Source of the DNA: Bacteroidales bacterium
GTDB lineage: Bacteria; Bacteroidota; Bacteroidia; Bacteroidales; JAEINX01
NCBI GenBank assembly: GCA_016342645.1
Contig: JAEINX010000004.1
Coordinates: 4,363-68,362 of the forward strand
Reading direction: 5' to 3'
Length of the DNA: 64,000 bases
Shown: positions 3,385 to 23,218 of the stretch, piece after piece
Numbering within the stretch: the first letter of the stretch is position 1
Layout of the letters: every line of letters starts with the position of its first letter
Notes under the pieces: generated by a model
The model's input: the letters and a program-made list of their open reading frames with translations, nothing else
Told to the model about the DNA's origin: nothing
Databases searched by the model: none
Made by a program: the position numbers and the translations under genes

Positions 3385-3427
3385 TTCTTTTTATTTTTAA
3401 TTAACTATAATTTTATTTTCCTAAATG

Positions 3428-3470: not shown

Positions 3471-3485
3471 ATGATTTATGTCGAA

Positions 3486-6466: not shown

Positions 6467-6477
6467 CTCTGATAATT

Positions 6478-6560: not shown

Positions 6561-6618
6561 AATAAAAGATTTTTTCCTCTATTGATGATAAAAAGTTTAA
6601 CTTTTAAAAATCAATGTA

Positions 6619-9000
6619 ATGAAAAAAATTATTTGGACAATGGCCTTGTTTCTAAGCCTTCAGAACCTTACTTTCTCACAATTCACAATTAAAGGGAAGG
6701 TTTTTGATAAAGAAACAAATGAAAAATTAATAGGTGCACACATTATTGTCGAAGGCACTTATAATTTAACAACAAGTGATCAAAAAGGCAATTTCATTGT
6801 CAAAAATCTTAAAAAAGGGAAATATGTTTTTCGTGTTTCTTATGTCGGTTATAAAGACTGTGAAAAGGATATTGAGGTAAAAAAAAACTTAGATATTAAT
6901 TTCGGGCTTGAGTCGAAGGCAATTTTAGAAGATGAGGTAATAGTTTCAGCAATAAGAGCTTCGGACAAAGAACCTTTGACTTATAAAAATATATCAAAGA
7001 AGGAAATAAAAGAGGTAAACCTTGGGAAAGATTTACCTTTTATAATTGAATCTACGCCATCAACAGTTGTAAGTTCTGATGCCGGGGCAGGAATCGGATA
7101 CACAGGTATTCGTATTCGAGGAACAGATATAACACGAATAAATGTTACCGTTAATGGTATCCCGATTAATGATCCGGAATCTCACGGTGTATTCTGGGTT
7201 AATATGCCTGATTTTGCCTCAACAGTCGATAATATTCAAATTCAGCGAGGTGTGGGAACTTCAACAAACGGAGCAGCCGCATTTGGAGCAAGTATAAATA
7301 TTCAGACTTTAAAATTAAACCGTAAGGCTTATGCTGAAATAAATTCCTCTGCCGGATCATTTAATACTTTTAAAAATAGTTTGACATTCGGGACAGGCTT
7401 ACTTGATGGAAAATGGACTCTTGATGGGCGATTATCAAAAATTTCTTCGGATGGATACATCGATAGAGCAACTTCCGACCTGAAATCATTTTTTGTATCA
7501 GCCGGATATTACGGGAAAAAGAGTATTTTAAGATTAAATGTTTTTTCGGGAAAAGAAAAAACCTATCAGGCATGGGAAGGTGTTCCGAAAGATTCGCTAA
7601 AAACAAATCGCACATTCAATCCTTATTCTTATGAAAATGAAACCGATAATTATTGGCAAGATCATTATCAAGCACTTTATTCTAACCAACTCAACAAAAA
7701 AATAAACTTTAATTTTGCCTTGCATTATACAAAAGGAAAAGGATATTACGAACAATATAAAACCAAAAGGAAGTTCAAAGACTATCGTTTGGAAAATGTA
7801 ATTATCGGACAGGATACAATTACAAAAACAAACCTTATCCAACAAAAATGGCTTGATAACGATTTTTATGGTTTTACATATTCATTAAATTATGAAAAGA
7901 AAAAATTAAGTGCTGTTTTAGGTGGTGCATGGAATAAATTTGATGGTGATCATTATGGTGAAGTAATTTGGGCACAATATGCCAGCAACGGGAAAAAAGG
8001 ACATCGTTGGTATGAAAATAAGGGTGTTAAAAAGGACTTCAACGTTTTCGGGAAATTAAATTATCAACTAAACGAAAAAATTAATTTGTATGGCGACCTA
8101 CAATTTCGCAAGATTAATTATTCAATAAAAGGAAATCATGATGATTTACGTAACCTTACACAAAAACATGATTTTGATTTTGTTAATCCTAAATTCGGGA
8201 TTTTATATCAATTAGCTTCTAACCAAAAGGTATATTTTTCATTTGCAATTTCAAACCGTGAACCAAATCGCAGCAATTATCGTGATGCCGATCCCGGACA
8301 TTTACCGAAAAGCGAAAAGTTGAATGATTTTGAACTGGGATATGATTTTCATATAAATAGCCTTGCCATAGAAGCAAATATTTTTTATATGGATTATTTA
8401 AACCAGTTGGTTCTTACGGGAGAGATAAATGACGTTGGTGCTGCTATAATGACTAATGTGCCGGAAAGTTACCGTGCCGGAATTGAGATTAGCTCAGGGA
8501 TAAAAATTCTTGATAATCTTACTTGGGATATAAATGCAACATTCAGCACAAATAAAATTAAAGATTTCACCGAATATGTTGACAAATTTGATGAAAACTG
8601 GAACCCCGAACGTCAGTTTTCAAAATATCTTGGTAAAACCGACCTGTCTTTTTCACCTGATATTATTGCCGGAAGCATATTTAATTACGAAATTATTGAT
8701 GATTTATTTATTAGTTTTATTTCAAAATATGTAAGCAGGCAATATATTGATAATACGTCTAATAAAGACAGAAGCTTAGACCCTTATTTTGTTAATAATC
8801 TTATTTTTAACTATAGTTTTAAAACAAAACCTTTCAAAGAAATTGGATTTCATTTCATGCTTAACAATATTTTTAGTGAAAAATATGAAACCAATGCATG
8901 GGTTTACAGAAGTTTTGTTGGAGAGAAATTAATGATATATGACGGTTATTTTCCACAGGCGGAATTTAACTTTCTTGCCGGAATTAGCTTGAGGTTTTGA
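6619..9000 (+). CDS. TonB-dependent receptor with N-terminal carboxypeptidase-regulatory-like domain (probable thiamine or thiamine-precursor uptake)
   Basis: 793 aa. Signal peptide, CarbopepD_reg-like start (FTIKGKVFDKETNEKLIGAHIIVEG), plug region, long beta-barrel and a terminal aromatic residue (...ISLRF). The function is inferred from the upstream TPP riboswitch. Confidence 0.88.
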   Translation: MKKIIWTMALFLSLQNLTFSQFTIKGKVFDKETNEKLIGAHIIVEGTYNLTTSDQKGNFIVKNLKKGKYVFRVSYVGYKDCEKDIEVKKNLDINFGLESKAILEDEVIVSAIRASDKEPLTYKNISKKEIKEVNLGKDLPFIIESTPSTVVSSDAGAGIGYTGIRIRGTDITRINVTVNGIPINDPESHGVFWVNMPDFASTVDNIQIQRGVGTSTNGAAAFGASINIQTLKLNRKAYAEINSSAGSFNTFKNSLTFGTGLLDGKWTLDGRLSKISSDGYIDRATSDLKSFFVSAGYYGKKSILRLNVFSGKEKTYQAWEGVPKDSLKTNRTFNPYSYENETDNYWQDHYQALYSNQLNKKINFNFALHYTKGKGYYEQYKTKRKFKDYRLENVIIGQDTITKTNLIQQKWLDNDFYGFTYSLNYEKKKLSAVLGGAWNKFDGDHYGEVIWAQYASNGKKGHRWYENKGVKKDFNVFGKLNYQLNEKINLYGDLQFRKINYSIKGNHDDLRNLTQKHDFDFVNPKFGILYQLASNQKVYFSFAISNREPNRSNYRDADPGHLPKSEKLNDFELGYDFHINSLAIEANIFYMDYLNQLVLTGEINDVGAAIMTNVPESYRAGIEISSGIKILDNLTWDINATFSTNKIKDFTEYVDKFDENWNPERQFSKYLGKTDLSFSPDIIAGSIFNYEIIDDLFISFISKYVSRQYIDNTSNKDRSLDPYFVNNLIFNYSFKTKPFKEIGFHFMLNNIFSEKYETNAWVYRSFVGEKLMIYDGYFPQAEFNFLAGISLRF

Positions 9001-9100
9001 TTATAAGGCCATTAATTATTGAGATTTATTCTATTAAAAAACATCTCAAAAATATTTGTAATTTTGCATAGAGTCATTTTATTAAAGAAATTAAAAAGAG

Positions 9101-9532
9101 ATGAATAAAACAGCATATGCAGCTCCTTGCGGCCTTGATTGTTTTCACTGTGAATATTTTGAAAAGAATATTTCAGAAGAAACCATAAAAATGCTTATTA
9201 AGCATTTGGGAATGAAACGGTCGGAAGCTCCTTGTAAAGGTTGCCGCTTTGAAAAGGGATGCAAATATTTTGATAATAAATGTGAAACTCAAGATTGTGT
9301 TAGATCCAAAAAACTTCAATTTTGTTTTGAATGTAATGAGTTTCCTTGTCGTTTTCTCCAACCCTGCGCCGATGGTGCCGAAAAATATTCGCATAACATG
9401 AAGATATATAATTTATGTAGAATGAAAGCAGTTGGAGTAAATAAATGGGCTGAAGAAGAAGCCTTACTGATTAGGAAACGCTATTTTAAAGGAAAATTTG
9501 TTAGCGGATCAGGAGTGAAACTTCCGGAGTAA
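9101..9532 (+). CDS. Cysteine-rich protein, DUF3795-like
   Basis: 143 aa. CGLDCFHCEYF, CKGCR, CETQDC and CFECNEFPC motifs. Family assigned from memory of the N-terminal APCGxxCxxC pattern. Confidence 0.55.
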   Translation: MNKTAYAAPCGLDCFHCEYFEKNISEETIKMLIKHLGMKRSEAPCKGCRFEKGCKYFDNKCETQDCVRSKKLQFCFECNEFPCRFLQPCADGAEKYSHNMKIYNLCRMKAVGVNKWAEEEALLIRKRYFKGKFVSGSGVKLPE

Positions 9533-10102
9533 ATTAAACTTATTGTTTCCCAATAACCATGCATTCATTAGGGTGGAATATATTTCCCTTTAAGCAAAAT
9601 ACTCTCTTTTAGTCACATTAGCTAAAGTTCTTTAGGATTTAAACAATCAAGATTATAATAAGCGGTGTTCTATTCTGCAGAATTTATTATCAGTTCTGTT
9701 GGCTTTAACAATTGGATTTTTCTCCACATTTTTTCTCAGAAATGATTTTTTAAGAAAAATTCTAATCTGCTTTAATAATAACATACATCGAAATACGTAA
9801 ATTCCACGCAGGTTTTGAGGTGGAAAACACCCTAAAAAAAATAATTTTTAAAAAAATAATAAAAAAATAATTTTTTCTACCGTCTAAAAACCACTGTTAA
9901 TTAATTAACAATAGAAAAAACAATTTTTTTTCTGAAGAAAAACAGTATCGTTTTTCATAAAAGAATTTTTCTAATAAACAAATATAGTGATTAATACAGT
10001 TTTTAATTAGGTGTTTCTACCTAATAATATAATTGTGTTTTTCACTCTTGCACAGCCTTGGTTTCTGAAATAATTTTGCTGTTGAAATTAATAATAAAGA
10101 AA

Positions 10103-10540
10103 GTGAAAGCAAAAAAAATAATATTAGTTGACAATAACAAGTTCTTCAGAAAAGCTCTCCGAGAAATTATAATGAGCATTGGAGGAGCAGAAATTGTTGC
10201 TGAAGCTGCAAGTGGAAAGGAGTTTCTTGATATTATTGAACTAAAGCATGTTGATATTACTTTTATAAATATCAAATTACATGGTATTGATGGTGTTGAG
10301 GCTACAAAAATTGCTCATCTTTCTAAACCCGAAATGATTATTATTGGTTTTTCGTCATTTGAAAATCAAAGATATATTAGCCAGATGTTAGCTGCCGGTG
10401 CAAAAGGCTATCTATCAAAAAATCGTGATAATTACGACTTATTAAAGTCAATTATCGAAAATCCTTATCAAGGATTGTTTTTATCAAAAGAAATTGAGCA
10501 AAATATTAATATGAATCAAATTAATTTTAAGGTAGTTTGA
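10103..10540 (+). CDS. NarL-type pseudo-receiver lacking both the phospho-acceptor Asp and an output domain
   Basis: The track ORF starts at a TTG (10058). There is no ATG before the domain, so I prefer the GTG at 10103 (VKAKKIILVDNN...). Aligned to the receiver consensus, the phospho-acceptor position is Asn (DITFINIKLHGIDG versus PDvvlmDirMPgmdG) and the acidic pair is DN. The conserved Ser and Lys (GYLSK) are retained. No LuxR helix-turn-helix follows. Confidence 0.55.
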   Translation: MKAKKIILVDNNKFFRKALREIIMSIGGAEIVAEAASGKEFLDIIELKHVDITFINIKLHGIDGVEATKIAHLSKPEMIIIGFSSFENQRYISQMLAAGAKGYLSKNRDNYDLLKSIIENPYQGLFLSKEIEQNINMNQINFKVV

Positions 10541-10580
10541 TCAAAAAAATCATTTATTAACAATCAAAAAAAATTGAGCC

Positions 10581-11081
10581 ATGAAAACTAAAAAGATTTT
10601 AATCGTTGACGATGACATAGATGTTATCAATGTTATTCAAACAATTTTGGAACATGAAGGTTATGAAGTTTTTTCAGCAAACAACAAAGTAGAAGGCCTT
10701 GAAAAAGCAAGAGAAATAAAACCTGATCTTGCAATTCTTGATGTTATGATGACAACACATTACGAAGGCTTTGAATTAGCAAAAGAATTGACAAGTAATC
10801 CTGCTTTCAATAAAATGCCGGTCGTAATGCAAACATCAATCGAAGCTTTAACAACCACAAATCCGAGTGTTCAGGAAATGGCAAGAGAATTTAGGTTAGA
10901 TCCAAAATACAAAGAATTGCAAGTCATTTTAATTAAAGATGTTACAACAGGTAACGCCGGAGTTGATTATCTGTCAGAAGAGGGGAAATCAGTATTTATC
11001 CATATTGACGGTTTTTTGAGAAAACCTGTGGATTCAAGCAAGCTTTTACCCGAACTCAAAAGACTGCTCGGTAAAAACTAA
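10581..11081 (+). CDS. Stand-alone response-regulator receiver with an internal insertion
   Basis: 166 aa. ILIVDDD, the phospho-acceptor context DLAILDVMM, VVMQTS, and Lys in FLRKPV. About 45 extra residues lie between beta4 and beta5. No output domain. Confidence 0.8.
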   Translation: MKTKKILIVDDDIDVINVIQTILEHEGYEVFSANNKVEGLEKAREIKPDLAILDVMMTTHYEGFELAKELTSNPAFNKMPVVMQTSIEALTTTNPSVQEMAREFRLDPKYKELQVILIKDVTTGNAGVDYLSEEGKSVFIHIDGFLRKPVDSSKLLPELKRLLGKN

Positions 11082-11092: not shown

Positions 11093-11123
11093 AGGTTAAG
11101 TGATTAAAAGCATCACTTAACCT
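11093..11123 (+). other. Perfect 12-bp stem-loop between the receiver gene and hydC
   Basis: AGGTTAAGTGAT-TAAAAGC-ATCACTTAACCT. It is not followed by a clean U-tract (TTAAATTCC). Confidence 0.4.
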
Positions 11124-11167: not shown

Positions 11168-11635
11168 ATGAAAACAAGTTTTGAAGCAATTGTAAAAAAT
11201 TATCCTAATGCGAAAAATGATAGTTTAATACCTATTTTGCAAAAAATTCAGGATGATGAAGGATATATTTCAGAGAATTCTGTAATAAAGGTCGGTGAAT
11301 ATTTAAAAATTCCGACAAGCAAAATTTATGGTGTTGCAACTTTTTATAATCAGTTTAGATTTGAACCTACCGGCAAATATCATATTCAGGTTTGTAGGGG
11401 TACTGCATGTCATGTTTTAGGATCGGCAAGTGTTTTACAAGAATTAGAAAAACACTTAAAAATCAAAGCAGGACAAACTTCAAGAGATGGTTTGTTTAGT
11501 ATCGAAGTAGTTGCATGTATTGGTGCATGTGGATTAGCTCCTGTTATTTGTGTTAACGGTGAATTTTTTGCAAAAGTTACCAAAGAATCAATTAAAGAAA
11601 TTATTGATAATTATAGAAATAAAGAGAGCAAGTGA
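11168..11635 (+). CDS. hydC: [FeFe]-hydrogenase gamma subunit, NuoE-like thioredoxin-fold [2Fe-2S] protein
   Basis: 155 aa. CRGTACHVLG and CIGACGLAPV cysteine motifs typical of NuoE/HydC. Translationally coupled to the next gene (TGATG). Confidence 0.85.
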   Translation: MKTSFEAIVKNYPNAKNDSLIPILQKIQDDEGYISENSVIKVGEYLKIPTSKIYGVATFYNQFRFEPTGKYHIQVCRGTACHVLGSASVLQELEKHLKIKAGQTSRDGLFSIEVVACIGACGLAPVICVNGEFFAKVTKESIKEIIDNYRNKESK

Positions 11636-13584
11636 TGAACAGCCAAATTTCAAATAACAAAAATTTTCTTATCAATAATATTTTAAACAAGTTTTCATCA
11701 GATGACTATGATAAAAAAGTTATCGAAAAACTTGATGAAATTAAAAGAGAAAAAAGTAGTAAAACAACAATTTATGTTGGTGCAGGAACTTGTGGATTAG
11801 GCGCAGGGGCAAATAAAACTATTGAAGCTGCGAAAACATATATTAAAAATAACAAGATTGAGGCCGATCTTATCGAAGTAGGCTGCATAGGACTTTGTTC
11901 TTCCGAGCCATTGCTTGATGTTAAAATTCCCGGAAAAAATAGGCTGTCATTTGAACATATTACAGGCGATAAAGTTGAGAAAACTCTTGATAGTGTTTTC
12001 AAAAATAGTATTAATAAGGACAATATCTTTGGGCAGTTCAAATCAGAAAAAGCCGAAATGTGGGAAAATATTCCTTATATTGAGGATCATCCGTTTTTTG
12101 CTCCTCAAACACGCTTGGTTTTAAAAAACTGTGGAATCATTGATCCAGTAAACATTGAAGAGTATATTGCTTATGGCGGTTACAAAAGTTTTCTTAAAAC
12201 CATAAATAACTATACCCTATCCGAAGTTTGCGATTTTGTTGAAAAAAGTGGATTGCGAGGCCGAGGTGGCGGAGGTTTTTCAACCGGAAAAAAATGGAAA
12301 TTTGCTATGAACACAACTGCCGATCAAAAATATTTGATTTGCAATGCCGACGAGGGTGACCCCGGAGCATTTATGGATAGAGCAGTTATTGAAGGCGATC
12401 CACATCGTCTGATCGAAGGTATGGCTATTTCGGCCTATGGAATTGGTGCTTCAAAAGCTTATGTTTACATTCGTGCTGAATATCCTCTCGCAATCAAACG
12501 CCTGAAAGTTGCTTTAGAAGATGCAAGAAATTACGGATTATTAGGGGAAAATATATTCAACACAGGTTTTGATTTTGATATTATTATTAAAATGGGAGCA
12601 GGAGCTTTTGTTTGTGGTGAAGAAACTGCATTGATTAATTCCATTGAAGGTAAACGAGGAATGCCAAAACCAAGGCCTCCATTTCCGGCAGTTTGCGGAT
12701 TGTTCGGAAAACCCACAATTATTAATAATGTTGAAACTTTATCGAATATTGCAGGCATTTTTGAAAGAGGCCACGAATGGTTTAGCGAAATTGGTACCGA
12801 TACCAGCAAGGGAACTAAAGTTTTTGCTTTGTCGGGAAAAGTTGCATTGACAGGTTTGGTTGAAATTCCGATGGGAACAACAATTCGTGATATAGTTTTC
12901 AAAATTGCTGGCGGAGTAAAAAACAATAAGAAATTCAAGGCGGTTCAGATTGGAGGGCCTTCGGGGGGTTGCATAACCGACGAAAATCTCGACATTCAAA
13001 TCGATTATGAATCATTGATTAAAGTTGGCGCTATGATGGGTTCGGGAGGACTCGTTGTAATGGACGAAGATACCTGCATGGTTGATGTTGCAAAATTCTT
13101 TATGGATTTTATTCAACGTGAAAGCTGTGGGAAATGTATTCCTTGTCGCGAAGGAACAAAACGTATGCTCGAAATTTTAGAAAGCATAACTCATCGCCCC
13201 AAAAATGAAAGCAGCAACGAGGCTCTTCTTAGATTTAAAGGTATTCTTCAATTGGAAAAACTCGGCAAAGTTATCAAAGATACATCTTTATGTGGCTTAG
13301 GACAAACAGCTCCAAATCCGGTTTTAAGTACTTTAAAATGGTTTCGTGATGAATACGAAGCCCATATTTTTGAAAGAAAATGTCCGGCCGGAGTTTGCAC
13401 CGATTTAAGAACCTTTATAATTGATGTTGATAAATGCACAGGTTGTACAGCTTGTGTACGAAAATGTCCAACCGGAGCTATCATCGGTTCAAAAAAATCT
13501 CCTCATTTTATTGTTGAGGAAAAATGTATCGGTTGTGGTACTTGTGAAGAAATCTGTAAGTTTAATGCAATATCTATAGTTTAA
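11635..13584 (+). CDS. hydB: [FeFe]-hydrogenase beta subunit, NuoF-like NAD(P)H/FMN/Fe-S protein
   Basis: The ATG at 11635 overlaps the hydC stop by 1 nt (the track ORF begins at the GTG at 11632). N-terminal extra [2Fe-2S]-like domain (GTCGLGAG...CIGLCSSEP), FMN/NADH site GRGGGGFSTGKKW, NuoF cluster ESCGKCIPCREG...CGLGQ, and two C-terminal ferredoxin motifs (CTGCTACVRKCP, CIGCGTCEEIC). Confidence 0.9.
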   Translation: MNSQISNNKNFLINNILNKFSSDDYDKKVIEKLDEIKREKSSKTTIYVGAGTCGLGAGANKTIEAAKTYIKNNKIEADLIEVGCIGLCSSEPLLDVKIPGKNRLSFEHITGDKVEKTLDSVFKNSINKDNIFGQFKSEKAEMWENIPYIEDHPFFAPQTRLVLKNCGIIDPVNIEEYIAYGGYKSFLKTINNYTLSEVCDFVEKSGLRGRGGGGFSTGKKWKFAMNTTADQKYLICNADEGDPGAFMDRAVIEGDPHRLIEGMAISAYGIGASKAYVYIRAEYPLAIKRLKVALEDARNYGLLGENIFNTGFDFDIIIKMGAGAFVCGEETALINSIEGKRGMPKPRPPFPAVCGLFGKPTIINNVETLSNIAGIFERGHEWFSEIGTDTSKGTKVFALSGKVALTGLVEIPMGTTIRDIVFKIAGGVKNNKKFKAVQIGGPSGGCITDENLDIQIDYESLIKVGAMMGSGGLVVMDEDTCMVDVAKFFMDFIQRESCGKCIPCREGTKRMLEILESITHRPKNESSNEALLRFKGILQLEKLGKVIKDTSLCGLGQTAPNPVLSTLKWFRDEYEAHIFERKCPAGVCTDLRTFIIDVDKCTGCTACVRKCPTGAIIGSKKSPHFIVEEKCIGCGTCEEICKFNAISIV

Positions 13585-13605
13585 CCTTTTATATGTTTTA
13601 AGAAA

Positions 13606-15330
13606 ATGAGTTTTCAGATAGAAGTAAATAATAGAAATTTAGAAGCCAATAAAGGTGAAACCATTTTGGATGTGCTTAACAGGAACGGAATAAAAGTCCC
13701 TACTTTGTGCCACATGAAAGATTTTTTCCCAAGCGGATCATGTCGGATGTGTGTTGTCGAAAATCTTAGAACAGGAAAACTGATTACAGCTTGTTCCTAT
13801 CCGGTTGAAGAGAGAATGAAAATTAAAACTCATTCACCAAAAGTCATAGAATCAAGGAAAACAATAGTGGAATTGCTTTTATCCAATCATCCCGATGATT
13901 GCTTGTTTTGTGTAAGAACCGGAAACTGTGATTTGCAAAAATTGGCTAAAGAGCATAACATAACCGAACGAAGAATAACGGGAGTAAAGAATAATCATAA
14001 TCTTGATTTGTCAAGCTCAAGCATAGTTCGTGATCCGGCAAAATGTATTCTTTGCGGAAGATGTGTTCAGGTTTGTGAGCAGGTAATGGGAGTTTCTGCA
14101 ATTGATTTTTTGAACAGAGGAAGCAATTCCTATATTGGAACAGCTTTTGATAAAGGTTTAAATGTTTCAAGTTGTGTTAATTGCGGACAATGTATTTTAG
14201 TTTGCCCAACAGCAGCATTAACTGAGAAAAATCATTTCCCGGGAATTCAGGAAGCATTGCGTAATCCAGAAAAAACAGTTGTTGTTCAATATGCTCCGGC
14301 GATTACTGTTTCATTAGCCGAAGAATTAGGATTCAAACCGGGGAAAGATATTAATGGAATAATTAATGCAGCATTAAGATTAATTGGTTTCAACAAAGTT
14401 TTTGACACCTCGTTTACTGCCGACCTTACAATTATGGAAGAATCGGCCGAGCTGATTGACAGAATTCAAAATAATGGTGTTTTGCCAATGATAACATCTT
14501 GCTGTCCGGCATGGGTGAAATATGCCGAGGAATTTGTTACGGATTTCATTCCGAATATTTCGTCATGCAAATCACCACAACAGATGATGGGTGCTGTTAT
14601 AAAAAGCTATTTTGCCGAAAAAAGCAATATAAAACCGGAAGACATTTATTCTGTTTCAATAATGCCATGCACTGCAAAGAAATTTGAAGCACAACGAGAA
14701 GAAATGACTCATAACGGAATTTCGGATGTTGATGCGGTTATTACAACACGAGAATTAGCACAATTTATTAGACTTTACGGAATAGATATTCATAATATTG
14801 AACCAGAAATTGCTGACTCCCCTCTTGGAGTAAGGAGTTCGGCAGGGAAATTATTTGGAGCAACAGGCGGTGTTATGGAAGCTGCTGTTCGCACAACTTA
14901 TTATAAACTTACAGGAGAAGAGCTAATTAATTTTAGAATTCCTGAAGCAAGAGGTTTGAAAAAACGAAAAGAAATAAAACTAAAAATTGGTGATCTTGAA
15001 ATCGGCCTTGCCGTTGTTAATGGTTTGGCTAATGCCAAAATACTATTAGACGAAATAAAGGCGGGCAGAAAAGATATACATTTTATTGAAATTATGGCTT
15101 GTCCGGGAGGTTGTATCGGTGGCGGTGGCCAACCTATTGAATTTGATGAAAATAATGTCATTGCAAGAATGAATTCATTATATGATATTGACGATAGGGC
15201 AACAATAAAAGTTTCTCATAAAAATCCCGATATTATTGAACTATATAATCAATTTCTCGGCAAACCTCTTGGAAGTAAGAGTCATAAATTATTGCATACA
15301 AAATATTGTAAACGAGATGTTTTACTTTAA
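13606..15330 (+). CDS. hydA: [FeFe]-hydrogenase catalytic subunit (M3-type; bifurcating-type by synteny)
   Basis: 574 aa. N-terminal plant-type [2Fe-2S], His-ligated cluster motif HPDDCLFCVRTGNC, and two ferredoxin motifs. All three canonical H-cluster signatures are intact: TSCCPAW, MPCTAKKFE, MACPGGCIGGGGQP. Confidence 0.93.
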   Translation: MSFQIEVNNRNLEANKGETILDVLNRNGIKVPTLCHMKDFFPSGSCRMCVVENLRTGKLITACSYPVEERMKIKTHSPKVIESRKTIVELLLSNHPDDCLFCVRTGNCDLQKLAKEHNITERRITGVKNNHNLDLSSSSIVRDPAKCILCGRCVQVCEQVMGVSAIDFLNRGSNSYIGTAFDKGLNVSSCVNCGQCILVCPTAALTEKNHFPGIQEALRNPEKTVVVQYAPAITVSLAEELGFKPGKDINGIINAALRLIGFNKVFDTSFTADLTIMEESAELIDRIQNNGVLPMITSCCPAWVKYAEEFVTDFIPNISSCKSPQQMMGAVIKSYFAEKSNIKPEDIYSVSIMPCTAKKFEAQREEMTHNGISDVDAVITTRELAQFIRLYGIDIHNIEPEIADSPLGVRSSAGKLFGATGGVMEAAVRTTYYKLTGEELINFRIPEARGLKKRKEIKLKIGDLEIGLAVVNGLANAKILLDEIKAGRKDIHFIEIMACPGGCIGGGGQPIEFDENNVIARMNSLYDIDDRATIKVSHKNPDIIELYNQFLGKPLGSKSHKLLHTKYCKRDVLL

Positions 15331-15369: not shown

Positions 15370-17352
15370 ATGGGCCGGACAAATAGAAATCAACTTGTTT
15401 TTACTGAACCCGACAAATGTCGAGTTTGCTATACATGTGTGAGAGAATGTCCTGTTAAAGCTATTAAAATTATTAATGGCCAGGCTCAGGTAATAAGTGA
15501 GCGTTGTATCGGTTGTGGAAATTGTGTCAAGGTTTGTAGCCAGGGAGCAAAAGTTTTTTTAGATTTGAAAACGGAAGTATATTCACTTCTCAAATCAAAT
15601 GAAAAAGTAGTTGCTTGTATTGCTCCGAGTTTTCCTGCTGAATTTACCGAAATAAAAGATTATTCTATTTTAGTTGGAATGATAAGAAAGCTTGGTTTCG
15701 ATTACGTTGTTGAAGTGTCGTTTGGAGCAGATATCATCGCAGGTGAATATCGTAAAGAGTTGGAGAACGAAAACGCTAAACCTTGCATTTCATCCGATTG
15801 TCCGGCTATAGTTTATTTTATTGAACATTATCATCCAAATTTGATTCCTTCTTTGGCAAAAATCGCTTCGCCCATGGTAGCTATTTCTCGGATTGTAAAA
15901 AAGAAGTATGGTGAAAATGTAAAGGTTGTTTTTATTGGTCCTTGCATTGCAAAAAAAGCTGAATCAGAAGAAATCAACGAGGTTATAACTTTCAAGGAAC
16001 TGAGAGAGATGTTTGTGTTAAGTGGTATTGACTCTGCGAAAGTTATGCCTTGTGATTTCGACCCTCCAAAATCCGGAAAAGGAGCAATTTTTCCGGTTAG
16101 CAGAGGGCTTCTGCAAACTGTCGATAAAAGCGATGACATTTGTGAAGGAAATATTGTTGTTGCCGAAGGCCGAATTAACTTCCGTGATGCAATCAAAGAA
16201 TTTGAAAAAGGATTGATAAAATCTCAAAACCTTGAGCTGCTTTGTTGTGAAGGCTGCATTATGGGACCGGGGATGTCGTCGGGTGGAAAAAGATATTCAC
16301 GCCGAACACGAATTAGTGATTATGTAAAAGAAAAAATTAAAAACCTCGATCAATCTCAATGGGAAAAGGACATGCAAGAATATTCAAAACTTGATATGAG
16401 CCAGACATTCGAATCTTCCGACAGACGAATAAAACTCCCTTCACGTGAGGAAATTGATAAAGTTCTTGTTTCTATTGGAAAAATCACTCCAAAAGATCAT
16501 TTAAATTGTGGTGCTTGCGGATACGATACTTGCGAAGAACATGCAATTGCGATTGTTGAAGGCTTAGCCGAAAACGAAATGTGCTTGCCTTATACTATTG
16601 AAAAGCTTCATAAATCAATTAACGACCTCAATTTCTCTAACGAAAAACTTGCTTCTACTCGTCAAGCTTTAAAACAAAGCGAAAAACTTGCAAATATGGG
16701 TCAACTTTCTGCTGGAATTGCTCATGAATTAAATAATCCTTTGGGTGTGATAACAATGTATAGTAATATTCTTTTGGAAGAAGCAAACGAAAATGATTCT
16801 ATGAAAAAGGACCTTGAATTGATTGTTGAACAATCAAGCAGATGTAAAAATATTGTTGGTGGTTTATTGAACTTTGCACGAAAAAACCAAGTTAATTTAA
16901 CTGAAACTAACATGATTAGTTTTACAAAAAATAGTATCAAGTCAATTATTAAACCCGAAACTATCAATGTAGTTTTTAATTCAAAACTAAATGATCCGAT
17001 TGCAATGATTGATACCGATCAAATGATGCAAGTATTAACCAATTTAGAAAAAAATGCCATTGAAGCCATGAATGAAGGTGGTACACTAAAAATCGAATTA
17101 AACGGAAACAATAACGAAATAGAATTTAAAATATCTGATAGCGGAGTTGGTATTTCAAAAGAAAATATGGATAAAATTTTTACTCCGTTTTTTACAACAA
17201 AAGAACTTGGTAAAGGCACAGGTTTAGGATTACCCTTAATTTATGGAATTGTGAAAATGCACAAGGGGCAAATTTCGGTAAACTCAAATGCAAATCCTGA
17301 TAACGGGCCAACAGGAACTTCTTTTAAAATTGTTATACCAAGAAATATGTAA
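15370..17352 (+). CDS. Sensory [FeFe]-hydrogenase-like (HydS-type) domain fused to a histidine kinase
   Basis: 660 aa. Two N-terminal CxxCxxCxxxCP ferredoxin motifs. The H-cluster domain has altered signatures (SSDCPAI, GPCIAKKAE, LCCEGCIMGPGM). Then CGACGYDTC-x16-C, a coiled coil, the H-box AHELNNPL, and N/G1/G2 boxes (NLEKNAIEAM, DSGVGI, GKGTGLGL). Confidence 0.85.
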   Translation: MGRTNRNQLVFTEPDKCRVCYTCVRECPVKAIKIINGQAQVISERCIGCGNCVKVCSQGAKVFLDLKTEVYSLLKSNEKVVACIAPSFPAEFTEIKDYSILVGMIRKLGFDYVVEVSFGADIIAGEYRKELENENAKPCISSDCPAIVYFIEHYHPNLIPSLAKIASPMVAISRIVKKKYGENVKVVFIGPCIAKKAESEEINEVITFKELREMFVLSGIDSAKVMPCDFDPPKSGKGAIFPVSRGLLQTVDKSDDICEGNIVVAEGRINFRDAIKEFEKGLIKSQNLELLCCEGCIMGPGMSSGGKRYSRRTRISDYVKEKIKNLDQSQWEKDMQEYSKLDMSQTFESSDRRIKLPSREEIDKVLVSIGKITPKDHLNCGACGYDTCEEHAIAIVEGLAENEMCLPYTIEKLHKSINDLNFSNEKLASTRQALKQSEKLANMGQLSAGIAHELNNPLGVITMYSNILLEEANENDSMKKDLELIVEQSSRCKNIVGGLLNFARKNQVNLTETNMISFTKNSIKSIIKPETINVVFNSKLNDPIAMIDTDQMMQVLTNLEKNAIEAMNEGGTLKIELNGNNNEIEFKISDSGVGISKENMDKIFTPFFTTKELGKGTGLGLPLIYGIVKMHKGQISVNSNANPDNGPTGTSFKIVIPRNM

Positions 17353-17379: not shown

Positions 17380-17775
17380 ATGAATAGAGATAAAAAAATT
17401 ATATTAGTAATTGATGATGACATTGATTATCTCGAACAAATGAAAATACAAATCACATCATTTGGATTTCTGCCAATACTTGCCGAAAGCCAAAAAGAGG
17501 GTGAAGAAAAAATAAATGAAATTAAACCCGATCTTGTTATTGTTGACTTGATGATGGAAAATCAGGATAGCGGGTTTATTTTTTGTTATAAAATAAAAAA
17601 GAAATTTCCCGAAGTTCCCGTAATTATTGCTTCGGCAGTAACGGCTGAAACAGGAATGATTTTCGGGCTGAATTCTGAAGAAGATCGAAATTGGATTAAA
17701 GCCGACCAATATCTTGAAAAAGGAATAAGACCCGATCAGCTTCAGCGAGAAATTAATAAATTGCTAAAACTGTAA
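17380..17775 (+). CDS. Stand-alone response-regulator receiver
   Basis: 131 aa. ILVIDDD, DLVIVDLMM, and Lys in YLEKG. No output domain. Starts 27 nt downstream of the hydrogenase-kinase gene. Confidence 0.85.
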   Translation: MNRDKKIILVIDDDIDYLEQMKIQITSFGFLPILAESQKEGEEKINEIKPDLVIVDLMMENQDSGFIFCYKIKKKFPEVPVIIASAVTAETGMIFGLNSEEDRNWIKADQYLEKGIRPDQLQREINKLLKL

Positions 17776-18016: not shown

Positions 18017-19159
18017 ATGGAAAAATTAAAAGTATTAGTAGTTGATGATGAGCCGGGAATTCGCTCAGGAATTGAAAGAATTTTAAGGAATTATACTGTC
18101 GGATATCCGTTTATGGACGAAGATTTCCATTTTGAAATGATTGAAGCAGAAACAGGCGAAAAAGCAATCGAAATTATTGATAACGATCAAGTCGATATTA
18201 TTTTGCTTGACAATAAATTACCCGGAATTCACGGCATCGAAGTACTCGAATATATCAATAAAAAGCAATACGATGCTCAGGTTATGATGATAACTTCTTA
18301 TGCTTCGCTCGATCTTGCTGTGAAGGCAACAAATAACGGAGCATTCAATTTTGTGCCTAAACCTTTCACTCCACAGGAATTAAAAGCTGCGATGGAGAGC
18401 ATTACAAAGCATCTTTTTCTTGAAAGGATGACTCGAAAAATGAACCAAGAAGGCAAACAAATCAGATTTCAATTTTTGTCTGTCTTGTCGCATGAACTTA
18501 AATCACCTATCAACGCCATCGAAGGATATTTGCGAATCATGCAGGAAAAACAGGTTGGCGAAAATATTAATGATTACCAAAGAATGATAGCCAGATCAAT
18601 GGAACGCCTCAACGGTATGCGAGGATTAATAATGGATCTTTTGGATCTTACAAAATTAGAACCCGGAAAAAAAAGGAACTTGAAAAATATCGATATTTCT
18701 GAAATTGCTAAAATTTGTGTTAATACAATGGAACCTTTGGCTATTCAAAAAAACATCAAAATATTTGTTGATATCGATCATGAGATTTACTTTCCGGTCG
18801 ATAATACCGAAATGGAAATAATTTTTAATAATCTTATTTCTAATGCAGTAAAATATAATAAAGATAATGGCGAAGTTCATGTTAGTCTAAAAAATAATAT
18901 TAATTCAATCAAAATATTGGTTGAAGATACAGGTATCGGAATGTCGGATGATGAAATTTCCAAACTTTTCCATGAATTTGTTAGAATAAAAAATGTTAAA
19001 ACGAAAAATATTACCGGAAGCGGACTTGGATTATCAATAGTGAAAAAACTTGTAGATGTTTATGATGGAAAGGTTATGGTTTCGAGTGTTCCCGATAAGG
19101 GTAGTAAGTTCGAAATAGAATTACCAATACATAGAATTACCAATACAATGAATGAATGA
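18017..19159 (+). CDS. Receiver-histidine kinase fusion (REC-HisKA-HATPase)
   Basis: 380 aa. VLVVDDEPGIRSG, DIILLDNKLPG and FVPKPF in the receiver. H-box LSHELKSPINAIEGY. N box NLISNAVKYN, then DTGIGM and GSGLGLSIV. Confidence 0.85.
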   Translation: MEKLKVLVVDDEPGIRSGIERILRNYTVGYPFMDEDFHFEMIEAETGEKAIEIIDNDQVDIILLDNKLPGIHGIEVLEYINKKQYDAQVMMITSYASLDLAVKATNNGAFNFVPKPFTPQELKAAMESITKHLFLERMTRKMNQEGKQIRFQFLSVLSHELKSPINAIEGYLRIMQEKQVGENINDYQRMIARSMERLNGMRGLIMDLLDLTKLEPGKKRNLKNIDISEIAKICVNTMEPLAIQKNIKIFVDIDHEIYFPVDNTEMEIIFNNLISNAVKYNKDNGEVHVSLKNNINSIKILVEDTGIGMSDDEISKLFHEFVRIKNVKTKNITGSGLGLSIVKKLVDVYDGKVMVSSVPDKGSKFEIELPIHRITNTMNE

Positions 19160-19239: not shown

Positions 19240-20667
19240 ATGGAATTTAAACCGGAAAAATATTCAATAGAAGATGAATCAATGAAACCCTTTATTGATG
19301 CCGGTGAAATTTGTGATTATATCAATAATGCCAATCCGACAAAAGAAAGTGTTAGAAAGATCATTGAAAAATCATTAAACAAAAATCGGTTAAACCTTCA
19401 GGAAGTAGCCGTGCTTGTTAACACCAACGATCCCGAACTTGTTGAAGAAATCAAAGCCGGTGCAAAGAAACTTAAAGAAAATGTTTATGGAAACCGGATA
19501 GTTTTGTTTGCGCCTTTATATGTTGGGAATTTGTGTTTGAACGATTGCAAATATTGCGGATTTAAATCATCAAACAAAAACGCTGTTCGTAAAACTTTAA
19601 GCAAAAACGAATTAATAGAAAACGTTAAAGCTCTTGAAGAACAAGGACAAAAAAGATTGATACTTGTTTATGGTGAACATAAAAAATATTCTCCTGAGTA
19701 CATTGCCGAAACCGTTCGCACGGTTTATGACGTTAAAATTGGGAATGGCGAAATTCGTCGAATAAATATAAATGCTGCACCTCTTGATATTGATGGGTTT
19801 AAAATTGTTAAAGAAGCTGGAATTGGAACTTATCAGGTTTTTCAGGAAACTTATCATCCCGAAGCATTTAAAATTTATCATCAAAAGGGAGCCAAAGCCA
19901 ATTACCCAAATCGGCTGACTGCTCTTGATCGAGCTCAAGTAGCTGGAATCGACGATGTTGGAATTGGAGTTTTGTTCGGACTTTACGATTGGAAGTTTGA
20001 AATTCTTTCATTGATCCGACACACAAATCATCTTGAAGCTTGCTATAATGTTGGCCCACACACAATTTCATTCCCTCGCTTGCAAGATGCCTCCGAAAAT
20101 GATATTGATGAAAAGTATAAAGTTTCGGACGAGGATTTTACAAAAATTGTTGCCATTCTGAGGCTTGCTGTTCCTTACACAGGTTTGATTTTAACTGCTC
20201 GCGAACCCGAAAATATTCGAAAAGAAGTCTTGCAATATGGTTGTTCACAAATTGATGCCGGCACAAAACTCGAAATTGGAGCTTATGCCGAAAGCCCTGA
20301 AATTGACCAAAATCTAAACAAAGAACAATTTTTAATCAACGATTCAAGAACTTTAAATGAAGTTATTGATGAACTGGTTAATGATGGGTATCTTCCTTCT
20401 TTTTGTACGGCTTGTTACAGGCTGGGAAGAACAGGTGAACATTTTATGGAATTTTCGGTTCCCGGTTTTATTAAACGATATTGTACACCAAATGCTATAT
20501 TAACATTAACTGAATATCTTATCGATTATGCAAAACCCGAAACAGCTAAAAAAGGATGGAAAATCATTGATGAGAATATTAATAAAATGAGTGATAGTAA
20601 AAGAAAAGCTGAAGTCATAAAAAGGATAGAAAAAATTAAAGCGGGAGAACGTGATTTGTATTTTTAA
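19240..20667 (+). CDS. hydG: [FeFe]-hydrogenase maturase HydG (radical SAM tyrosine lyase)
   Basis: 475 aa. Radical-SAM motif CLNDCKYCGF, ThiH-like core, and a C-terminal cluster region with SFCTACYR. Confidence 0.9.
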   Translation: MEFKPEKYSIEDESMKPFIDAGEICDYINNANPTKESVRKIIEKSLNKNRLNLQEVAVLVNTNDPELVEEIKAGAKKLKENVYGNRIVLFAPLYVGNLCLNDCKYCGFKSSNKNAVRKTLSKNELIENVKALEEQGQKRLILVYGEHKKYSPEYIAETVRTVYDVKIGNGEIRRININAAPLDIDGFKIVKEAGIGTYQVFQETYHPEAFKIYHQKGAKANYPNRLTALDRAQVAGIDDVGIGVLFGLYDWKFEILSLIRHTNHLEACYNVGPHTISFPRLQDASENDIDEKYKVSDEDFTKIVAILRLAVPYTGLILTAREPENIRKEVLQYGCSQIDAGTKLEIGAYAESPEIDQNLNKEQFLINDSRTLNEVIDELVNDGYLPSFCTACYRLGRTGEHFMEFSVPGFIKRYCTPNAILTLTEYLIDYAKPETAKKGWKIIDENINKMSDSKRKAEVIKRIEKIKAGERDLYF

Positions 20668-20766: not shown

Positions 20767-20799
20767 AAATGTTAAACTAATTTGCTAAAAAATACTTCA

Positions 20800-22011
20800 A
20801 TGACAAAAGGAAAGGATTCAAAGCCGCATATCGGAATTTTTGGAAGAAGAAACAGCGGTAAAAGCTCTTTCATAAACTCAATTGTAGGACAGGATGTTGC
20901 AATAGTTTCTGAAAACGCCGGAACAACAACAGATCCGGTTAAAAAATCATTGGAAATTTTTGGTATTGGCCCTGCAATTATCATTGATACTGCCGGAATA
21001 GACGATGAAGGCAAGCTTGGAAAAATGCGTGTTGATAAAAGCCTGGAAGCAATAAAAACAGTCGATGCAGCAATTCTTATGATTTCGGAAAACTCATTCG
21101 ATGTTTATGAAATCGGTTTAATAAAAAGATTCAACAATCTTGACGTTCCTTTTCTAATTATTCACAACAAATCTGATTTTGAAGAAATTTCAAACAAAAC
21201 AATCGAAAAAATTGAAAACTACACCCAGTCTCCAATAATTAATTTTAGCGTTAAGCATCCCGATAAATCAGAAGAAGTTATAAATTTAATTAAAAAAATA
21301 ATTCCTGAAACTGCTTATCAATCAGTTTCACTTCTTGGAGATTTACTTTCAAAAGATGATATCGTACTTTTAATTACACCTATTGACTCGGAAGCTCCCG
21401 AAGGAAGAATGATATTGCCGCAAGTAATGGCAATCAGAGATATTCTTGATAACGAATGTGTTTCTATTGTTGTTACAGAAAAAGCAGTAAAACATTTTCT
21501 CGAAAAAACTAAAATTAAACCTAAATTAGCTGTTACCGACAGCCAGGCTTTTGAACTTGTCAAAAAACTCATCCCCGAAAATATTCCTTTAACAAGTTTC
21601 AGCATTGTTTTTGCAAGGATGAAAGGCAATTTTAAACAATATATTAAAGGCACAAAATTTATTCCCGAATTAAAAAACGGCGACCGAATTCTTATTCTCG
21701 AATCCTGTTCCCACAGAATTAGTTGTGAAGATATTGGAAGATATAAAATTCCAAAATGGCTAAGAAATTTTACAGGAAAATCATTAGAATTTGATGTTGT
21801 TTCCGGTTTGAATAAACTTGATCGCAATATCAATAAATATTCTATGGTTATTCAATGTGGTGGTTGTGTTGCCACACGAAAACAACTACAAAACAGATTG
21901 AAACCTGCGATTGATGCCGGAATTCCGGTTTCAAACTACGGAATGACAATTGCTTTTATTAATGGAATTTTTGAGCGTGCAATTATGCCATTTAAAAACA
22001 CAACATTTTAG
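20800..22011 (+). CDS. hydF: [FeFe]-hydrogenase maturase HydF (GTPase scaffold)
   Basis: The track ORF starts at a TTG (20782); I prefer the ATG at 20800 (MTKGKDSKPHIGIFGRRNSGKSS). G1 is GRRNSGKSS, G3 is DTAG, G4 is NKSD. The C-terminal cluster motif is CSHRISCEDIGR...QCGGC. Confidence 0.9.
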   Translation: MTKGKDSKPHIGIFGRRNSGKSSFINSIVGQDVAIVSENAGTTTDPVKKSLEIFGIGPAIIIDTAGIDDEGKLGKMRVDKSLEAIKTVDAAILMISENSFDVYEIGLIKRFNNLDVPFLIIHNKSDFEEISNKTIEKIENYTQSPIINFSVKHPDKSEEVINLIKKIIPETAYQSVSLLGDLLSKDDIVLLITPIDSEAPEGRMILPQVMAIRDILDNECVSIVVTEKAVKHFLEKTKIKPKLAVTDSQAFELVKKLIPENIPLTSFSIVFARMKGNFKQYIKGTKFIPELKNGDRILILESCSHRISCEDIGRYKIPKWLRNFTGKSLEFDVVSGLNKLDRNINKYSMVIQCGGCVATRKQLQNRLKPAIDAGIPVSNYGMTIAFINGIFERAIMPFKNTTF

Positions 22012-22096
22012 ATTGATGATTTATAAACCAAATCGAATACTTATGAATTTTCACACAAAATTAGACCAATCTAAAATAAAATATAAGCACCTAACA

Positions 22097-23218
22097 ATGA
22101 AACCTCGTTTGCATAAAATATTATCAAAAAAAAAGTTTGAAAAAAATGATATTGTTGAACTTTTATCAGAAACCGATTCTGTTGAAAAAAATAAGATTAG
22201 GCAAAAAGCTTACTCAATAAAACGTAAAAAGCTTTCCAATGCAGTTTATTTTAGAGGTTTAATAGAATATTCTAATATTTGTTCCCGCAATTGTTTTTAT
22301 TGTGGTGTAAGAGCCGGAAATACTCATGTTAATCGTTATCAGTTATCTGATAAAGAAGTTTTAGAAGCTGTTGATTATGCTTGGAAAAACAAGTTTGCCT
22401 CAATCGTAATTCAATCCGGTGAGCGCAAAGACAATGATTTTGTCAGGAAGATTGATAATCTTTTAAAAAAAATAAAACAAAACACAAACAACGAAATCGG
22501 GATAACATTATCTTGTGGCGAGCAAAGCGAAGAAACTTACAAAAAGTGGTTTGAAAGTGGTGCTCATCGTTATCTTTTAAGAATAGAAACCACTAACGAA
22601 AAATTGTTTAATAAAATTCATCCGGTTAATGAAGAAGTCAATTTCGCAAGCCGATTGAAGGCTCTTGAATTAATAAAAAAAACCGGTTACCAAACCGGTA
22701 CGGGAGTAATGATAGGTTTACCCTTTCAATTAATTGATGACCTTGCCAATGATTTGATGTTTTTTAAAGATTTCGATATTGATATGGTTGGGATGGGCCC
22801 GTATATTGAATGTAATAACACTCCTCTAAGCATTCATAACAATATTTTACAACCACTAAACGAAAGGTTTGAACTAAGTTTGTTAATGATTTCGGTTCTG
22901 AGAATTATGATGAAAGATATAAATATAGCAAGCTCTACAGCCTTGCAAGCAATTCATCCAATGGGCCGCGAAAAGGGATTACTCGCAGGTGCAAATGTTA
23001 TTATGCCAAATATTACACCTTTAAAACATCGAGTTGATTATTTATTATATAAATATAAACCCGGCACTAACGAAAAATGCGATACTGTAAAAAGTCGGCT
23101 CGAAAACAATATTAAATTACTCGACGAAGAAATTGCTTACGGCAAATGGGGCGATTCAAAACATTTTTTTGCAAAAAGAAAAAATAAATTTAATTCAGCA
23201 ACTCAAAGTGAAAATTAG
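22097..23218 (+). CDS. hydE: [FeFe]-hydrogenase maturase HydE (radical SAM)
   Basis: The track ORF (21950) overlaps hydF. The ATG at 22097 gives MKPRLHKILSKKKFEKNDIVELL..., colinear with known HydE N-termini. Radical-SAM motif CSRNCFYCGVRAGN, BioB-like core. Confidence 0.87.
   Translation: MKPRLHKILSKKKFEKNDIVELLSETDSVEKNKIRQKAYSIKRKKLSNAVYFRGLIEYSNICSRNCFYCGVRAGNTHVNRYQLSDKEVLEAVDYAWKNKFASIVIQSGERKDNDFVRKIDNLLKKIKQNTNNEIGITLSCGEQSEETYKKWFESGAHRYLLRIETTNEKLFNKIHPVNEEVNFASRLKALELIKKTGYQTGTGVMIGLPFQLIDDLANDLMFFKDFDIDMVGMGPYIECNNTPLSIHNNILQPLNERFELSLLMISVLRIMMKDINIASSTALQAIHPMGREKGLLAGANVIMPNITPLKHRVDYLLYKYKPGTNEKCDTVKSRLENNIKLLDEEIAYGKWGDSKHFFAKRKNKFNSATQSEN

Follow-up and report, generated by a model that had tools for sequence, protein, structure and literature searches.

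Fusion of a sensory-type [FeFe]-hydrogenase with a histidine kinase in a Bacteroidales genome: a probable one-protein H2 sensor kinase

How much H2 fermentative anaerobes produce, among them the abundant Bacteroidales of gut, rumen and digester, is believed to be set by sensory [FeFe]-hydrogenases. Groups C and D of these proteins are unified by the combination of a 2x[4Fe-4S] domain and a Cx2Cx4Cx16C cluster (PMC8163306, PMC13104023), and they are told apart at the position of Met353, where Gly is the group C signature and Ser or Thr is found in group D (PMC8163306). The HydDB classification, in which group C is delimited by sequence clustering and not by the presence of a PAS domain, has since 2016 included a class named "[FeFe] Group C1, histidine kinase-linked (putative)" (Sondergaard, Pedersen & Greening; PMC5037454). 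The sole sensors studied so far, the PAS-containing TmHydS (M2f) and the group D protein TamHydS (M2e), each bind an H-cluster and show both slow H2 turnover and sensor-like properties (PMC8163306, PMC10055695); they have given no measurable signalling output, and the favoured model of signalling by cluster reduction has been undermined (PMC13104023). Here we describe hydS-HK, a gene whose product unites a sensory-type [FeFe]-hydrogenase and a histidine kinase in one chain, located at 15370-17352 on the forward strand of a 64,000-nucleotide stretch of a Bacteroidales bacterium genome (GenBank assembly GCA_016342645.1, contig JAEINX010000004.1, positions 4,363 to 68,362), hereafter the window. 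On balance, and with moderate confidence, we read its product as a one-protein H2 sensor kinase of group C, fused to its histidine kinase, that would feed a two-tier relay and adjust expression of the neighbouring bifurcating-type hydrogenase HydABC and its maturases.

The gene is an intact reading frame of 660 codons, in whose product Pfam recognizes two [4Fe-4S] Fer4 motifs, an H-cluster domain, PF04060, a linker, HisKA and HATPase_c, in that order. The N-terminal 2x[4Fe-4S] ferredoxin-like domain (aa 11-60; 15400-15549, +; Fer4/Fer4_10 matches) carries two CxxCxxCxxxC motifs, at residues 17-27 (Cys 17, 20, 23 and 27) and 46-56 (Cys 46, 49, 52 and 56), and all eight Cys are kept in at least 90% of the 132 family representatives, clustered at 50% identity, over which family conservation was counted. 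The H-cluster domain (aa 78-300; 15601-16269, +) is delimited by a match to Fe_hyd_lg_C (PF02906, 1.4e-49), by column conservation and by profile alignment. It is followed by a C-terminal [4Fe-4S] domain (aa 378-407; 16501-16590, +; PF04060, 1e-08) with the four-Cys motif CGACGYDTCEEHAIAIVEGLAENEMC at residues 380-405, the ligands being C380, C383, C388 and C405; this Cx2Cx4Cx16C arrangement, which the first-pass annotation had likened to that of TmHydS, is indeed the one described for TmHydS and TamHydS (PMC8163306). Foldseek matches the N-terminal 410-460 residues of the structural model to bifurcating HydA, CbA5H, DdH and CpI with probability 1.0, the PDB set compared containing no group C or D sensor structure.

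The active site of hydS-HK is modified. Its P1 motif SSDCPAI (141-147), P2 motif GPCIAKKAE (190-198) and P3 motif LCCEGCIMGPGM (291-302) stand against TSCCPAW, MPCTAKKFE and MACPGGCIGGGGQP in the neighbouring HydA (13606-15330), so that all three signature motifs differ and the proton-relay Cys is replaced by Asp, as the first-pass annotation had read from the letters. Pairwise alignments of hydS-HK with HydA and CpI cover P1 and P2 and end before P3; a profile of the sensor half, built from 21 orthologues and searched against PDB sequences, extends across all three. In this profile alignment C144 corresponds to CpI C300, C192 to C355, C293 to C499 and C296 to C503, while K195 corresponds to K358, S167 to S319, E198 to E361 and L291 to M497; E279 falls inside a deletion. 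The profile string "ssdcP" lies on "tsDCP", and of the CpI entries it is the C299D variant 6glz that scores best. The four H-cluster Cys, together with the K358, S319 and E361 equivalents, also align to T. kivui HydA. The four ligating Cys and the conserved Lys claimed for this domain are thus present and in register with those of solved hydrogenases, with no sign of misalignment, and the second sphere is altered at D143 (the relay position), G190 (M353) and L291 (M497).

The P3 motif called for a correction. A ligand motif is present there, as had been proposed, and its reading is refined by the comparison of "ELLCCE-GCIMGPG" in hydS-HK with "EVMACPGGCxxGGG", in which one Gly is deleted between the two Cys, so that the conserved ligand pair is C293/C296, a Cx2C, against C499-x3-C503 in CpI. 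The preceding residue, C292 (nt 16243-16245), is kept in about 118 of 120 close orthologues, and in the family at large its position is mostly taken by Phe, Ala or Tyr. It was considered as the P3 ligand and rejected, since C293 and C296 are conserved family-wide and the profile alignment agrees; C292 is a clade-specific extra Cys. Of the 132 representatives, 130-131 keep C144, C192, C293 and C296 as well as all four C-terminal motif Cys (131 for the latter), 122 keep G190 and 110 (83%) keep K195, and P145 and P191 are conserved in the family alignment too, a pattern that speaks for strong purifying selection on the H-cluster ligands and Lys. Binding of the [2Fe] subcluster is predicted from the co-location of hydG, hydF and hydE and from the behaviour of the homologues TmHydS and TamHydS, which mature in vitro and readily take up the [2Fe] subsite (PMC8163306, PMC10055695). 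With its relay Cys not kept, Met353 and Met497 replaced and both iron-sulfur (FeS) domains present, hydS-HK has the features of the sensory groups, and it pairs Gly at M353, by which the group C active site is recognized, with a fused kinase and an architecture that lacks PAS.

The Asp at the relay position sets the Bacteroidota proteins apart within this family. At D143, the equivalent of Cys299, all 120 close orthologues have Asp, whereas only about 2 of the 132 family representatives do; the others vary, with Ala in 44, Pro in 20, Thr in 18, Ser in 15, Cys in 11 and further residues in the rest. In saturation mutagenesis of CaHydA, Asp was the sole replacement for the relay Cys with which high activity was retained (PMC3485046). 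Because Asp is the single residue known to replace the relay Cys functionally in group A enzymes, its presence need not mean that the relay is lost (PMC3485046), and the Bacteroidota clade may retain a working first proton-relay step.

The kinase half is complete and joined directly to the sensor half. HisKA (aa 443-506, with H452; Pfam E-value 1.6e-13) and HATPase_c (aa 548-658; 4.2e-22) span 16696-17343 (+) and hold an H-box HELNNPL at 452-458, an N-box at 558-566, G1 DSGVG at 590-594, an F-box at 604-611 and G2 at 614-621, in which the kinase residues H452, N562, D590xGxG, F604-F608 and G616xGxG are all present. H452 and the kinase boxes are invariant among 46 orthologues. The best PDB matches of the kinase core are ZraS, KinB and ThkA, with ZraS and AtoS most similar, and Foldseek likewise matches the C-terminal half to ZraS. 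No PAS domain is matched by Pfam anywhere in the protein, and a cryptic PAS between the FeS domain and the kinase was rejected on the same ground and because the 47 residues from C405 to H452 leave too little room; the complete kinase core without an intervening PAS, noted in the first reading of this DNA, is thereby upheld. No segment of transmembrane grade is found, the maximum 19-residue Kyte-Doolittle mean being 1.44, and NCBIfam offers no curated family for a hydrogenase-kinase fusion, its best matches being partial and below cut-offs. In the favoured reading, hydS-HK is a soluble, probably homodimeric, one-protein H2 sensor kinase; the intact Asp pocket of the adjacent receiver is consistent with its predicted autophosphorylation and phosphotransfer.

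The linker between the two halves is constant in length. From C405 to H452 (16585-16725, +) every one of the 120 orthologues has exactly 47 residues, and the conservation-weighted hydropathy of this segment peaks at a period of 3.5 residues. An H-box follows the FeS motif in 38 family members, 29 of which have linkers of fewer than 70 residues and are hence counted as short-linker fusions without PAS; in 24 of these 29 the linker measures 33, 40, 47, 54 or 68 residues, lengths that are all congruent modulo 7, and when only distinct lengths are considered 5 of 10 belong to the same class (binomial P about 0.008). Linkers quantised in heptads between an input domain and the dimerization and histidine phosphotransfer (DHp) helix are typical of coiled-coil signal transmission, as in the linkers that join PAS domains to histidine kinases. 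Such a length pattern would be expected if the linker were a coiled coil in which register matters, and the heptad periodicity combined with the quantisation in sevens suggests a probable mechanical coupling between the FeS domain and DHp, in agreement with the coiled coil originally proposed to follow the four-Cys motif. An AlphaFold2 (AF2) model of the monomer, built on 46 sequences, reaches a pLDDT (model confidence) score of about 90 in the H-domain and 81-91 in the FeS domain, and places helices at 406-430 and 443-471.

Proteins of this kind are widespread. A word-indexed protein search with hydS-HK returned at least 7923 proteins at E-values of at most 1e-10, the best 120 of which are all about 660 aa long, share the identical Pfam architecture and are 65-89% identical to it; the named sources among these 120 are metagenome-assembled genomes, of Bacteroidales for the most part and otherwise of Bacteroidota or Saprospiraceae. 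A scan of one genome per species yielded some 30 full-length orthologues, nearly all from Bacteroidota, and hydS-HK is accordingly a very common Bacteroidota protein in an already named class and not a rare architecture. The sensor half (aa 1-420), searched exhaustively with HMMER, matched 5995 representative clusters at E-values of at most 1e-3 and 997 at 1e-30 or better. Among the 132 top representatives, the C-terminal partners include HATPase_c (43, with HisKA in 40), PAS (at least 22), sigma54-activator AAA+ domains (16, often with HTH_8) and GGDEF (2), and the fusion to such varied signalling outputs indicates that the Fer4-H-domain-FeS unit is a portable input module. Output swapping of this sort fits an input domain and not a metabolic enzyme. 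By their domain content, the sigma54 AAA+/HTH_8 fusions (like the GGDEF ones, among representatives P0121-P0270) are putative one-component H2-responsive enhancer-binding proteins, and the GGDEF fusions putative H2-responsive diguanylate cyclases; neither kind turned up in literature searches, none of which was aimed at such fusions.

The genomic setting of hydS-HK is conserved too. All genes from 10058 to the end of hydE run in one direction. Three of them, hydC (11168-11635, +; 2Fe-2S_thioredx), hydB (11632-13584, +; Complex1_51K and NADH_4Fe-4S) and hydA (13606-15330, +; Fe_hyd_lg_C and SSU), precede hydS-HK, the last at a distance of 39 bp, and HydA scores 798.5 bits against a cut-off of 765 with the NCBIfam model FeFe_hydrog_A6 (group A6, "NADH-dependent"). 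The operon hydCBA (11168-15330) encodes an NADH-dependent bifurcating-type trimeric [FeFe]-hydrogenase, and is the probable regulatory target of hydS-HK. After a gap of 27 bp, hydS-HK is followed by a stand-alone receiver of 131 aa (17380-17775, +; Response_reg, 9e-14), the likely first phospho-acceptor, in which D12, D13, D56, T/S85 and K114 are conserved in 29 of 29 sequences, and then by a hybrid kinase of 380 aa with REC, HisKA and HATPase domains (REC-HK; 18017-19159, +; Pfam), in which D65, T93, K115, H159, N276, D304, F318 and G334 are invariant, again in 29 of 29. The association with kinases is hence double, one being fused and a second lying two genes downstream. The maturases follow as hydG (19240-20667, +), hydF (20782-22011, +) and hydE (21950-23218, +), NCBIfam equivalogs that score 500.7, 477.7 and 322.9 bits, respectively, all above cut-off.

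Two further receiver-only genes, recognized by Pfam and sequence, lie upstream of hydC. In the product of the first (10058-10540, +), Asn replaces the phospho-acceptor Asp ('DITFINIKLHG') and 'VDNN' replaces the acidic DD pair, and it is probably a pseudo-receiver of the NarL/UvrY type lacking a helix-turn-helix, with its true start probably at a GTG near 10103. The second (10581-11081, +; 166 aa), directly upstream of hydC, retains the acidic pocket and the acceptor Asp but carries some 40 inserted residues ahead of the conserved Lys. The 86-bp gap between this gene and hydC contains a palindrome (11093-11123) with a perfect 12-bp stem, which was considered as an operator, for instance for a Rex-like protein, and rejected because its half-site spacing is not Rex-like; it is missing from 66 of 66 related loci, including that of an 89%-identical relative, and in view of this lack of counterparts it is probably a local hairpin and not a conserved operator. 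Scans of the cluster for Sigma70 promoters and intrinsic terminators gave counts no higher than expected from shuffled sequence, and are uninformative for a Bacteroidota genome.

Comparison by tblastn of the window proteins with about 30 Bacteroidota loci reveals the block hydC-hydB-hydA-hydS/HK-REC-REC/HK in practically all loci whose length suffices to display it. The hydCBA genes lie directly upstream of hydS-HK in all loci compared, the stand-alone receiver directly downstream in 28 of 30, and REC-HK is syntenic in 29 of 30. Around this block, two types of locus can be distinguished. In window-type loci, two receivers stand upstream and hydGFE downstream, and both upstream receivers (10058-11081 in the window) are found only in this subset. 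The other type features a second, divergent sensory hydrogenase of 621 aa, without a kinase, which combines a Fer4-Hyd-FeS unit with a tail of about 210 aa, lies upstream of hydCBA and adjoins a SpoIIE/PP2C phosphatase encoded on the opposite strand, as well as a Rex-type repressor after the REC-HK gene; examples of such features are found in locus L006 at 3293-5158 (-), 2091-3275 (-) and 13616-14263 (+), and in L003 at 13535-14185 (+). Many related Bacteroidales loci are of this kind and indicate that two sensory hydrogenases, plus an NADH sensor in some cases, can flank a single bifurcating operon; the window has neither the second sensory hydrogenase nor the Rex-type repressor.

In the mechanism that we propose, the N-terminal 410 residues would form a complete HydS-type module, with two relay clusters, a modified H-cluster site and the C-terminal four-Cys cluster. 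Binding and slow turnover of H2 at the H-cluster would alter the redox or conformational state of this module. The last cluster ligand, C405, would stand at the start of a coiled coil in heptad register, 47 residues ahead of H452 on the DHp helix, and the change would be relayed by the FeS domain and the rigid helix in the form of a register shift, a rotation or a piston movement, thereby switching the balance between the autokinase and phosphatase activities of hydS-HK. The phosphoryl group would then be transferred to the receiver at 17380, to the REC domain of REC-HK at 18017, or to both, in a two-tier relay with REC-HK as the proposed second tier, and the end result would be an adjustment of co-located bifurcating HydABC and maturase expression to the H2 level. 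What the sequences show directly is the architecture, the conservation of ligands, the periodicity and quantised length of the linker, the synteny and the intact catalytic residues of all three signalling proteins. Occupancy of the H-cluster, responsiveness to H2 and its sign, the partners in phosphotransfer and the genes under control are here predicted from sequence features; for the central step we infer, on good grounds, that autophosphorylation of hydS-HK is controlled by H2.

Several points weigh against this proposal. The regulated target is a guess, since the window cluster encodes no DNA-binding output: domain searches found neither a DNA-binding response regulator nor a DNA-binding domain in the cluster or in its flanks, where the genes are for a TonB receptor, a DUF3795 protein, a DegT aminotransferase and the like. 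Across residues 420-457 the AF2 model is poor (pLDDT 30-46) and does not resolve the linker-DHp junction, and for this reason the continuity of the coiled coil is drawn from sequence periodicity and not from the model. A scheme in which H2 reduces the C-terminal cluster is doubtful because, in TamHydS under 1 atm H2, an N-terminal cluster becomes reduced and the C-terminal one does not (PMC13104023); the signal of hydS-HK may, by analogy, be conformational rather than a matter of cluster reduction. The invariant relay Asp could support real catalysis, leaving room for a metabolic role. Lastly, the literature search, while confirming that kinase-linked sensory [FeFe]-hydrogenases have been predicted in surveys (HydDB Group C1; PMC5037454), returned no experiment on any kinase-fused member and no paper on its autophosphorylation or other kinase biochemistry, in line with the statement in the first-pass annotation that none had been characterised.

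The TamHydS result also bears on the alternative that survives best, although we consider it unlikely, namely that hydS-HK is a general redox or ferredoxin-pool sensor kinase, whose N-terminal clusters exchange electrons with ferredoxin while the H-cluster equilibrates this pool with H2, so that the kinase would report reductant pressure or a ferredoxin/H2 disequilibrium and not H2 itself. Reduction by H2 of an N-terminal but not the C-terminal cluster of TamHydS would fit such a sensor, as would the conservation in hydS-HK of both N-terminal relay clusters, for which a pure gas sensor has no obvious need, and the Asp relay, which could permit real turnover. Furthermore, the Rex NADH/NAD+ sensor added in related loci implies that redox inputs are integrated there. 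A plain FeS or PAS sensor would, however, report redox state far more cheaply than an H-cluster that requires HydEFG, and the H-cluster ligands and Lys are under strong purifying selection; the two readings also overlap, inasmuch as H2 would be sensed through redox chemistry either way.

Quite improbable, in our estimation, is a second alternative in which the site holds only a [4Fe-4S] cluster, in the manner of Nar1/NARF, or in which lability to O2 or CO makes the H-cluster a switch; the protein would then report oxidative damage or anoxia and not H2. O2 destroys H-clusters, strict anaerobes need O2 alarms, and TamHydS reacts rapidly with O2 to a defined product (PMC8163306); the clade-specific extra C292 beside ligand C293 might also belong in such a scheme. 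Against this, C296, the equivalent of the bridging C503, K195, the equivalent of K358, which hydrogen-bonds the distal CN ligand, and P145 and P191 are all conserved, hydEFG are co-located, and the characterised relatives readily accept the [2Fe] subsite. Least probable of all is the notion that hydS-HK is mainly an accessory or catalytic subunit of HydABC, its kinase being secondary or structural, which could draw on the invariable position of the gene right after hydA across the 39-bp gap, on a relay Asp compatible with activity, on the treatment of Hydrogenedentota group C3 proteins as the T subunit of BfuABC, the proposed BfuT (PMC11406978), and on the possible metabolic role suggested for a C1 protein in a Cloacimonadota study (PMC8542988), but which is opposed by the invariance of H452 and all kinase boxes, by a dedicated receiver and second kinase with intact acceptor residues in 28-29 of 30 loci, by the swapping of the sensor module among signalling outputs in the family, and by the replacement of the catalysis-tuning M353 and M497, as in slow sensors. 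A signalling role is favoured over these alternatives because the kinase machinery is invariant, the receivers are dedicated and the sensor unit is reused modularly.

Within the H2 sensor kinase reading, a bolder and rather doubtful extension is that the Bacteroidota clade represents a distinct sensory subtype, defined by a competent relay (the Asp and the Ser319/Glu361 equivalents), a register-locked coil leading directly to a kinase and a receiver-only two-kinase relay that, in the window's cluster, lacks a transcription factor as output. If so, the system would measure H2 flux or H2/ferredoxin disequilibrium and not H2 binding, HydABC would possibly be acted on post-translationally, and for the first time the output of an [FeFe] sensor would be open to direct assay, settling whether and how HydS senses H2.

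Other features of the window merit brief mention. A thiamine pyrophosphate (TPP) riboswitch (RF00059; 6473-6569, +; 68 bits, gathering score 54.3) is found directly upstream of a gene for a TonB-dependent receptor (CarbopepD_reg_2, Plug and barrel; 6619-9000) and one for a DUF3795 protein (9101-9532), an arrangement that suggests a thiamine-regulated outer-membrane uptake operon at 6473-9532. Several additional sensory proteins are encoded downstream. A 1006-aa protein with PocR and multiple PAS domains and no output domain (42162-45182, +) has a stop codon that abuts the ATG of a MASE11-PAS-HisKA-HATPase kinase (45183-47075, +), and the two could be a split sensor pair; more sensor kinases are found at 47522-50206 (with three REC stretches), 57305-60997 (a Reg_prop hybrid) and 61015-63114 (TPR-HK). 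On the reverse strand, 34651-37005 (-) encodes a PorZ-like component of type IX secretion (PorZ_N beta-propeller, 6e-44), consistent with a Bacteroidota origin.

To hydrogenase specialists using HydDB, hydS-HK will be unsurprising, being one among thousands of such proteins. Its significance lies in the natural fusion to a kinase, which offers a direct readout, that is, autophosphorylation and phosphotransfer under H2 versus an inert gas, and in the length-quantised linker and the Asp relay, which are concrete handles for mutation and test. Proteins of the hydS-HK type hence constitute a practical, and the most tractable, route to how [FeFe] sensors signal.

Among described systems, the closest are the putative sensory, kinase-associated proteins of HydDB subgroup C1, which lie beside group A3/A6 bifurcating hydrogenases and are exemplified in the Bacteroidales by Petrimonas mucosa ING2E5A_0849, annotated as C1, beside a bifurcating hydrogenase and near hnd/hyd genes (PMC7768429). 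In the published C1 cases of Vallitalea and Cloacimonadota, the kinase is a separate neighbouring gene, whereas in hydS-HK sensor and kinase are one polypeptide. C1 proteins of the Hydrogenedentota carry a fused HATPase_c, and some C3 entries also bear a kinase domain (PMC11406978); fusion to HATPase_c within C1 has so far been remarked on only for the Hydrogenedentota, and hydS-HK displays the same fusion. Assignment of hydS-HK to C1 is provisional, as it rests on a C1-classed Bacteroidales proxy, and the kinase-bearing C3 entries make C3 a candidate as well.

With TmHydS, hydS-HK shares the order of 2x[4Fe-4S], H-domain and Cx2Cx4Cx16C, the replacement of Met353 by Gly (G177 and G190, respectively), the absence of the relay Cys and an association with bifurcating HydABC. 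It differs in that TmHydS continues into a PAS domain and no kinase, whereas in hydS-HK a 47-residue helix leads straight into HisKA/HATPase, and also at the relay and Met497 positions, since TmHydS (A131/G177/S267; PMC10055695) has Ala131 and Ser267 where hydS-HK has Asp143 and Leu291. As no PAS follows its FeS domain, hydS-HK is not M2f in the strict sense. TamHydS is likewise without PAS, ends in a four-Cys cluster, has Met497 replaced by Leu and is a genomic neighbour of a bifurcating hydrogenase, a kinase-like ATPase also being close by, but it has Ser in place of the Gly of hydS-HK at the M353 position, terminates after the FeS domain and has its putative kinase partner in a separate gene.

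Two more distant parallels concern the logic of the circuit and the kinase itself. On the one hand, in the [NiFe] group 2b systems HoxBC/HupUV with HoxJ/HupT, a slow sensor hydrogenase also controls a kinase that regulates energy-conserving hydrogenases (PMC5037454, PMC8163306), but metal site and fold are unrelated, and a separate heterodimer docks on a PAS-containing kinase in place of one PAS-less chain. On the other hand, cytoplasmic kinases of the NtrB/AtoS/ZraS type, which rely on S-helix or coiled-coil coupling, have the kinase core closest to that of hydS-HK (ZraS/AtoS), yet they receive their input from PAS, GAF or periplasmic domains and partner with NtrC-type regulators, whereas the input of hydS-HK is a metallo-hydrogenase module and its companions are a receiver-only protein and REC-HK.

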